Shown piece after piece: positions 11,925 to 12,137 of a stretch of 64,000 bases of DNA. The position numbers were made by a program, and so were the translations under genes. Below the pieces are notes generated by a model. It did no database searches, was not told the origin of the DNA, and was given only the letters and a program-made list of their open reading frames with translations. Source of the DNA: a bacterium (GTDB taxonomy: Bacteria; UBA8248); assembly GCA_965203325.1 (NCBI GenBank), contig OZ241875.1, positions 1,984,001 through 2,048,000 on the forward strand. The letters are read 5' to 3'. The number at the start of each line of letters is the position of its first letter. Position 1 is the first letter of the stretch.

Positions 11925-12137
11925 CTGGTGTCCGCTAATTGCCGTTATCGGCCCCCAGAAGCCCCGTTTTCCGCCGAAAAACCCGATTCGGGGTGCATTC
12001 GGGCCGCAAATGAGCGAAACATGAGCGAAAAAAGGCGCAAAACGGCGCTCGAAACCCCTCCGGGAACCCCGGAATCGCGCTTGACATGGCCGTGAGAGGT
12101 GTTAAATTTTCTGATAACGGCAATTATCGGACTCCAG
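11925..12137. promoter_or_regulatory. Candidate invertible promoter segment flanked by inverted recombinase-type sites
   Basis: 11925-11951 vs reverse complement of 12111-12137 match at 24/27; TTGACA-16-TAAATT at 12081-12108 lies inside. Confidence 0.6.

Follow-up and report, generated by a model that had tools for sequence, protein, structure and literature searches.

A candidate Cre-type promoter switch upstream of a two-gene adhesin operon

Can a short promoter-bearing segment upstream of an adhesin-like operon be inverted to switch the operon on when the recombinase gene beside it survives only as a remnant? We addressed this question in a 64,000-nt stretch of UBA8248 DNA (hereafter the window, to which all positions not prefixed C1 refer), located on a single 4.39-Mb contig (C1). 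The analysis makes it probable that a 173-bp promoter segment between inverted lox-like sites is a phase-variation switch of the two-gene operon, flipped by a Cre-like recombinase that is likely supplied in trans.

Two lox-like sites around a promoter-like site

The initial annotation had described two inverted copies upstream of the operon, each a dyad around a common asymmetric 6-bp spacer in opposed orientation, and both statements held. Site A (11925-11951) matched the reverse complement of site B (12111-12137) at 24 of 27 positions, and the spacer TTGCCG was present in both sites, in opposite orientations. The pair was the top-length inverted repeat across positions 10500-15000, where the best 27-mer pair (60-600 nt apart) of the shuffle control matched at no more than 22 positions and none of 1,979 dinucleotide shuffles reached 23. 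Three of the four half-sites extended to 14 bp with the pattern TTATCGG-NNN-CCAG, and the fourth fitted over 7 bp only and merged with the −10 box. The full 34-bp sites (A, 11925-11958; B, 12104-12137) each had a 14+6+14 layout, equivalent to the 13+8+13 of loxP, and enclosed 173 bp between the spacers (179 from spacer to spacer). The cassette consists of the following features.

11925..11958, no strand: site A, lox-like, 34 bp; weak outer half-site CCGCTAA, spacer 11939-11944, inner half-site TTATCGG-CCC-CCAG
11945..12117, no strand: invertible segment, 173 bp, assembled OFF; the same segment is inverted in 3/16 paralogs
11967..12054, no strand: phased A/T tracts with an 11-bp tandem unit; the site distance (168/169 versus 179) is determined by how many units are present
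12081..12108, plus strand: switch promoter-like site TTGACA-16-TAAATT (10/12) with an extended −10 TG; TTGACA in 16/16 copies
12104..12137, no strand: site B, lox-like, 34 bp; inner half-site overlapping the −10 box, spacer 12118-12123, outer half-site TTATCGG-ACT-CCAG

The near-consensus σ70 promoter previously placed just inside site B and directed outward was recovered at 12081-12108. It was one of two σ70-like sites found between 11500 and 13500 (0.1 expected), both on the plus strand, and the scan found none on the minus strand of that region. Its predicted start (~12115) fell inside the inner arm of site B. The DNA of the A/T-tract region at 11967-12054 is, from its composition, likely bent.

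The A/B repeat by itself proves little because strong inverted repeats abound in this genome: repeats matching at 23 or more of 27 positions and lying 150-400 nt apart formed 135 clusters genome-wide, mostly REP-like. REP/MITE-like clusters of inverted repeats, belonging to few families and spaced by 150-400 bp, numbered more than 100 across the genome (G000). The case for the window switch is carried by the comparison of paralogs, not by the repeat alone.

A search by sites alone returned 16 pairs in the genome, every one spanning 213 bp, and no further full site of the cassette family was found in the genome outside these pairs. Thirteen of the 16 had the orientation of the window copy (OFF), and in three (C1:2078020, 2672528 and 3869506) the segment was reversed with unchanged flanks and with exchange points that fell in the spacers. 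The left flank of each reversed copy was nearest to that of a different OFF copy, so that at least three separate flips are likely; the left flank of C1:2078020 was 96.5% like that of the window. The earlier proposal that a flip of ~180 bp would aim the promoter at the adhesin, the assembled state being OFF, thus gained support from homologous loci that carry both orientations. The converse possibility raised with it, a single orientation with a separate minus-strand promoter for the adhesin, fits poorly with these loci and with the lack of any σ70-like site directed toward the cargo in all 13 OFF copies.

The spacers co-varied within the pairs. They were identical in 15 of the 16 although eight hexamers were in use, and 200,000 permutations reached at most 10 matches; the paralogs are kin exchanging sequence, and counts across the 16 are not independent. 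At site A, TTGACG and TTGCCG occurred in four copies each, so that the spacers are non-unique barcodes and insulation by spacer alone would be incomplete. The sole cassette with unequal spacers (C1:3371519-3371731) had a left flank and interior identical to those of C1:1029505 and a site B identical to that of C1:2556918; it is likely a hybrid and is possibly locked OFF.

Cargo, transcription and relatives of the cassette

All 16 cassettes faced a divergent gene for a secreted protein or lipoprotein that starts ~100-250 bp from site A. Seven cargoes were of the window-adhesin type (one of them broken), two of a second fibronectin/cadherin-like type and seven were lipoproteins (one of them split). 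In Pfam searches with 14 cargo proteins, the adhesin types matched Cadherin-like, Calx-beta and fn3 and the lipoproteins had no match; a weak, below-cut-off match of one lipoprotein to 'invert_tail' (NCBIfam) was disregarded. The window operon comprises two genes.

8859..11825, minus strand: operon gene 1, 988 aa, secreted and adhesin-like, with choice-of-anchor R and two cadherin-like domains
6421..8844, minus strand: operon gene 2, 807 aa, with a signal-peptide-like start, a cadherin-like domain without its first strand, Calx-beta and an autotransporter-like barrel

Gene 1 is the first gene that the switch would drive, and its product is adhesin-like, with a predicted role in adhesion. Residues 340-807 of gene 2 had ESM Atlas features at 0.95 to PF03797 clusters, with neither a Pfam Autotransporter match nor a PDB sequence match for the barrel, and this C-terminal barrel is likely an outer-membrane anchor. 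A cadherin-like domain appears to be split across the two genes (8859-8910 and 8521-8775): gene 1 ends in its first β-strand and gene 2 begins with a new signal peptide followed by the remainder of the domain, an arrangement kept in three paralogs. In a predicted complex, residues 972-987 of gene 1 lay within residues 24-103 of gene 2, with a score of 0.77 (best of three controls, 0.01), contacts agreeing at 94% or more and a partner pLDDT of at least 81; 51 of 78 solved pairs attained the mark applied, as did 2 of 108 mismatched ones. Docking of the two proteins by donor-strand complementation is thus predicted, and the score supports rather than proves it because the two parts of a split domain can score well through resemblance to folds already solved.

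Transcription away from the operon would encounter the following features to the right of site B.

12144..12182, plus strand: intrinsic terminator-like hairpin found by folding, with a 10-bp GC-rich stem, a 12-nt loop and T7
12184..12211, plus strand: second, fixed promoter-like site TTGGAA-16-TATACT (9/12), similar in 12/16 copies
12286..12552, plus strand: Cre-like recombinase remnant, the N-terminal ~59 aa joined to the last ~9 aa
12596..13315, minus strand: HTH_17 (excisionase-like) gene, which follows many cassettes

The terminator scan, with its loop limit of 8 nt, flagged nothing; the hairpin with its 12-nt loop emerged from folding (−21.1 kcal/mol, z −5.6, 0/200 shuffles), and a hairpin with a T-run was present in 15 of the 16 copies (11 strong, 4 weaker). 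The hairpin and the second promoter-like site, likely the recombinase gene's own promoter, both lie between site B and the remnant. The initial annotation had the switch promoter firing toward a recombinase remnant. The remnant is real (92% identical to an intact paralog over 49 aa), but the transcript would stop at the terminator first, and in the window subfamily the OFF promoter would be silenced and would not drive the recombinase. With a fixed promoter behind the terminator, the enzyme gene of this subfamily would not be toggled by the switch. A strict σ70 scan of the switch promoter was passed by 10 of the 16 copies; the six that failed, including two of the three ON copies, did so through a weaker −10.

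In the mechanism that we propose, four recombinase monomers would bind the four 13-14-bp half-sites, a short bent loop would bring sites A and B together, and strand exchange would take place across the identical 6-bp core. In the assembled OFF state the promoter would fire into the terminator at 12144-12182; in the inverted ON state transcription would start ~120 nt before the adhesin ATG at 11825 and the operon would be on. Switching could be biased by the overlap between half-site and −10 box and by weak and strong half-sites being paired unequally in the two states.

Relatives of the cassette were sought by DNA search, which matched 12 of 22 same-genus genomes (one by a 32-bp match at chance level) and 0 of 38 others, and with an orientation-neutral pattern, which matched 10 of the 22 same-genus genomes, 0 of 19 genomes from other genera of the family and one genome of another family within the same class, the reversed control giving zero. 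One relative (G012) had 17 pattern matches, and no chromosomal ortholog of the exact window insertion was present among its fetched loci. We analysed 39 of the 42 non-self pattern hits (the three left out were all from G002) and two further loci from G004; one hit lay at a contig end, and for each of the other 40 a partner was identified from the arms alone. Spacers were identical in all 40 pairs, which used 20 hexamers (at most 12 matches in permutations), and the orientation assigned by a cargo/enzyme rule was OFF in 35, ON in 4 and unassigned in 1; the source genomes are kin, and these counts overstate independence. Inverted forms of the cassette are known from four genomes. Distances between sites were 158 (1 pair), 167-169 (26) and 178-180 (13), that is, in steps of about one helical turn, which arise at least partly because the 11-bp tandem unit among the phased A-tracts varies in number. 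A locus titled 'Nitrospinota bacterium' had the same cassette with an 80% identical enzyme.

Two of the relatives' loci had features of their own. At L050:3252-3460 (G044, from the other family of the same class), both sites carried a matched 7-bp spacer next to an intact recombinase gene. At L046:3300-3450, a long array of 8-bp units lay within the leader that separates the switch from an SWM-repeat surface protein, as a possible second control of the slippage type.

The cassette also extended to a second phylum, at the following loci.

L055, L056, L057, L068 and L094-L112: Latescibacterota cassette loci before a TonB-dependent receptor gene

Homologs in Latescibacterota were 47-55% identical, and 17 of 31 genomes in the family of G066 matched the upstream DNA. 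All 17 carried TTGACA-17-TAAATT, visibly aimed at the TonB-dependent receptor gene in 16. Six genomes had both sites, 257-269 bp apart, with matched spacers (3 hexamers), all ON; no second site was found in the other eleven of the 17, and no OFF orientation occurred among the Latescibacterota loci. At the two-site loci the −35 box lay ~24 bp from the inner arm, as in the window. Site B had perfect 14-bp arms, the inner arm on the promoter side was degenerate, and these cassettes may be largely locked ON. No such site pair was present at seven Poribacteria loci whose homologs were 42-48% identical, a Binatia locus had a broken enzyme and only degenerate arms, and site pairs were found in none of the 7 metagenome loci examined out of 80. 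From IMG/VR came two weak fragments and a single chance match to the pattern, which had neither partner nor enzyme. The possibility that a deletion in G069 marks a pseudo-site was considered and was not confirmed. The marine hosts are likely sponge-associated, as judged from run labels; one run labelled 'sponge metagenome' (X3) contained 0.42 of the words.

The recombinase and the competing explanations

The recombinase gene was full-length at six of the 16 cassettes, a remnant at seven and missing at three. The top PDB matches of the intact 290-aa enzyme were to Cre (E 5e-13), ranking above XerA and including the C-terminal helix, and the catalytic R-K-H-R-W-Y set (equivalent to Cre R173, K201, H289, R292, W315 and Y324) was present in all six intact copies. 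The intact enzyme scored 21 bits with the FimB/E models NF007370/NF007371 (cut-offs 221/222) and 36-48 bits with the XerC/XerD models (cut-offs above 329). The sites conformed to the lox-like description of 13-15-bp palindromic arms around an 8-bp spacer beside the gene, with three of four half-sites fitting. Both arms were of one type, forming a symmetric dyad unlike the combination of a XerC arm with a XerD arm. By sequence, the enzyme of the window family is a Cre-like and not a FimB/E-like tyrosine recombinase. A FimB/FimE-type system was excluded by the 21-bit score, the 34-bp dyads and the more than 20 alternative spacers, and a XerC/D-dif or pdif site by the single-type arms and the sub-cut-off scores. 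The initial annotation had likened the locus to fimS: the class of switch is supported, but the enzyme falls outside the Fim family.

The window remnant arose when 675 bp were deleted at a 9-bp microhomology (12523-12531), with the loss of all catalytic residues. The same junction was found in all seven remnants and in two G012 copies, and the shared deletions may have recurred at the microhomology. A reversed, ~81% identical copy of the recombinase 3′ end occupies 13558-13689, 1 kb beyond the remnant, as in many sister elements.

If the window copy inverts, the enzyme must come from elsewhere, and cassettes in the same situation are informative. Ten enzyme-less cassettes with one common right flank, from four genomes, had matched spacers in 10/10 pairs with 7 hexamers, and nine deletion-class cassettes had matched spacers in 8/9 with 4 hexamers and occurred in both orientations, two being ON. 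We infer action in trans because enzyme-less cassettes keep spacers that are matched and yet diversified; matched spacers under drift are most simply explained by continued recombination. Some of this signal could also stem from deletions that recurred or from paralogs exchanging sequence. The N-terminus of the remnant was 92-94% identical to that of an intact paralog, which makes a shared specificity likely. Trans-acting or distant invertases are established in Bacteroides fragilis (PMC4747536), and Escherichia coli invertases act at a distance (PMC6083910). The window copy would likely be flipped by the intact Cre-like recombinases of its sister copies.

The most serious competing explanation, to which we assign a low but appreciable probability, is that the cassettes form a true switch family but the window copy is frozen OFF, its enzyme being lost and acting mainly in cis or barely expressed, so that the operon is silent. 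The local recombinase without a catalytic domain would agree with this, as would the predominance of OFF copies (13/16 here and 35/40 in relatives) and the sister cargoes that are broken (first cargo gene at C1:1262083) or split (C1:1411855). At the window locus itself, however, the sites, the spacer match, the promoter, the terminator and both cargo genes are intact in sequence. The matched yet varied spacers of the enzyme-less classes, the two ON copies of the deletion class and the specificity that the remnant likely shares with the intact paralog also favour a copy that is still flipped in trans.

The surroundings of the cassette bear on a second alternative. The cassette lies at the right end of a mobile element of ~42 kb.

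337..15358, no strand: in-window part of a ~42-kb integrative mobilizable element, with SSB and YspA/SLOG genes; approximate ends

Upstream of the window the element carries tandem Arm-type integrases, TrwB, TrwC and a Y-family polymerase. Each of the seven TrwC genes in the genome was accompanied, at a distance of 26-50 kb, by a cassette with the same orientation, and the element SSB was found within 50 kb of 11 of the 16 cassettes; carriage on mobilizable elements likely explains the copy number. In the seven TrwC-bearing elements (C1:732539, 979969, 1225216, 1969937, 3324854, 3837505 and 4259461) the recombinase was deleted in six and intact in one. A 14-bp direct repeat near the element ends was too weak (E 0.69) to be taken as att sites. 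Farther along the window, a tRNA-Pro gene (44832-44908) is followed after ~4 kb (~49000-51500) by a tandem integrase pair that is 93.5% like the pair at the left end of the ~42-kb element and probably marks the start of a sister element.

Carriage on such an element would suit an interpretation of the dyads as core and accessory subsites of a multimer-resolution or autoregulatory site, of the TnpI/IRS or Cre/lox kind, with the promoter belonging to the recombinase. Cre is described as resolving P1 dimers (PMC8138268), the A-tracts and helical spacing resemble accessory DNA, and the promoter overlaps a half-site and faces the enzyme gene. We nevertheless consider this very improbable. Inverted copies exist with exchange at the spacers; the spacers of accessory sites would not have to equal that of the core, yet they match in 55 of 56 pairs; in the window, a terminator stands between promoter and enzyme gene; and cassettes stay intact without any enzyme. 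A multimer-resolution site with one core per replicon and unrecombined accessory repeats was rejected in view of two full inverted cores, co-varying spacers and both orientations, with no further full site outside the 16 pairs. The initial annotation had named such subsites as a possible refutation, and the promoter switch withstood this comparison.

Lower still we place a two-way toggle, in which the OFF orientation would transcribe the recombinase and feed back toward ON. Several copies have an open frame that begins in the −10 region, crosses site B and continues into the recombinase, and among relatives a loose rule flagged a terminator at only 16 of 38 loci, several with an intact enzyme lacking it. 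Such feedback is hard to reconcile with the arrangement in this genome, where each of the 13 copies that retain an enzyme gene, whole or as a remnant, has a hairpin and T-run interposed between site B and that gene, with a separate promoter-like site behind them; at the window copy the enzyme is dead in any case.

Read evidence came from Logan contigs of four runs; these contigs drop rare variants and so give no evidence of absence. One X2 contig contained a joint between 11950 and 12113 on opposite strands, which is an inverted junction of the cassette family. It differed from the window locus at 6 of 82 positions and fitted C1:2078020 (ON in the assembly) or a flipped C1:705698 or C1:3371519. 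No inverted junction specific to the window locus was seen in these contigs. The X1 contigs contained the 5′ part of the adhesin gene with no differences, and no listed piece covered the cassette. The least credible explanation, that the inverted paralogs are assembly errors in repeats around inert sites, draws on the cassette being a 16-copy repeat in a metagenome-derived genome and founders on inverted forms in four genomes and a public-run contig, always joined at the spacer, and on a spacer co-variation that misassembly cannot yield.

Taken together, the evidence favours a promoter switch of the window operon that is turned in trans. A broader reading, which we offer tentatively, is a mobile, Cre-type, spacer-coded form of phase variation, in which one interchangeable recombinase would flip up to 16-17 dispersed surface-protein promoters per cell and the 6-bp spacer and a helically tuned loop would insulate the switches from one another. 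If true, it would give sponge-associated bacteria a combinatorial surface code, and a second phylum (Latescibacterota) would have taken up the same module for use with a TonB-dependent receptor; a Cre-family enzyme would have a native role in gene regulation, and more than 20 working spacers, a 7-bp variant among them, would form a natural library. The window copy alone carries a modest message, that of an OFF switch without its own enzyme.

Comparison with known systems

Most known cases of promoter-inversion phase variation come from pathogens and gut commensals, where the inverting enzymes are Fim-type, Bacteroides Tsr-type or serine invertases. The window family appears to use a Cre-like enzyme and lox-like sites instead, at 16-17 loci in each genome of an uncultured marine lineage that is likely sponge-associated, and long reads could put surface variation in sponge symbionts directly to the test. 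Genome engineering could also profit from a new Cre-type recombinase for which the natural sites reveal tolerated spacer changes. We found no Cre-type invertible promoter and no sponge-microbiome invertons in the literature consulted, although the supplementary inverton tables of a GTDB-wide study (PMC11602134) could contain them.

The Clostridioides difficile pdcB/Cdi2 switch is similar in having a 174-bp promoter-bearing invertible element with imperfect repeats in a genome with several switches (PMC9286219). The cargo differs, and the systems are likened by description, not by sequence. We know of no family of near-identical mobile cassettes among the C. difficile switches.

The E. coli elements fimS, ipuS and hyxS, with FimB, FimE, FimX, IpuA and IpuB, likewise combine a small promoter segment, a tyrosine recombinase and an adhesin or autotransporter target, and as described there non-adjacent enzymes can act and half-site asymmetry gives directional bias (PMC6083910). 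They differ in having fixed repeats of 7, 9 or 16 bp (9 bp in fimS; PMC6083910) where the window family has 34-bp dyads with variable matched spacers, and the window family reaches 16-17 copies per genome, many on mobile elements.

Cre/loxP resembles the window family in enzyme and site. Cre was the best PDB match with R, K, H, R, W and Y aligned, loxP has the 13+8+13 layout (PMC10250229) beside the gene, and Cre requires matching spacers (PMC11260471). Cre/loxP is a single resolution site, whereas the window family has two inverted sites ~170 bp apart around a promoter, and one half-site of the window cassette also serves as the −10 region. The helically spaced site distances hint at a geometric constraint, which to our knowledge is not a requirement of Cre.

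The B. fragilis Mpi, Tsr19/BF2766 and Tsr0667 systems resemble the window family in organization: one enzyme type serves many dispersed surface-molecule promoters, both local and distant, the loci are OFF-biased, and SusC-type receptors are among the targets, as in the Latescibacterota form (PMC4747536). Mpi, however, is a serine recombinase (PMC4747536), and the hosts of the window family are uncultured, likely sponge-associated marine bacteria in which the enzyme gene is multicopy, travels with the cassette and meets a spacer that belongs to each cassette.
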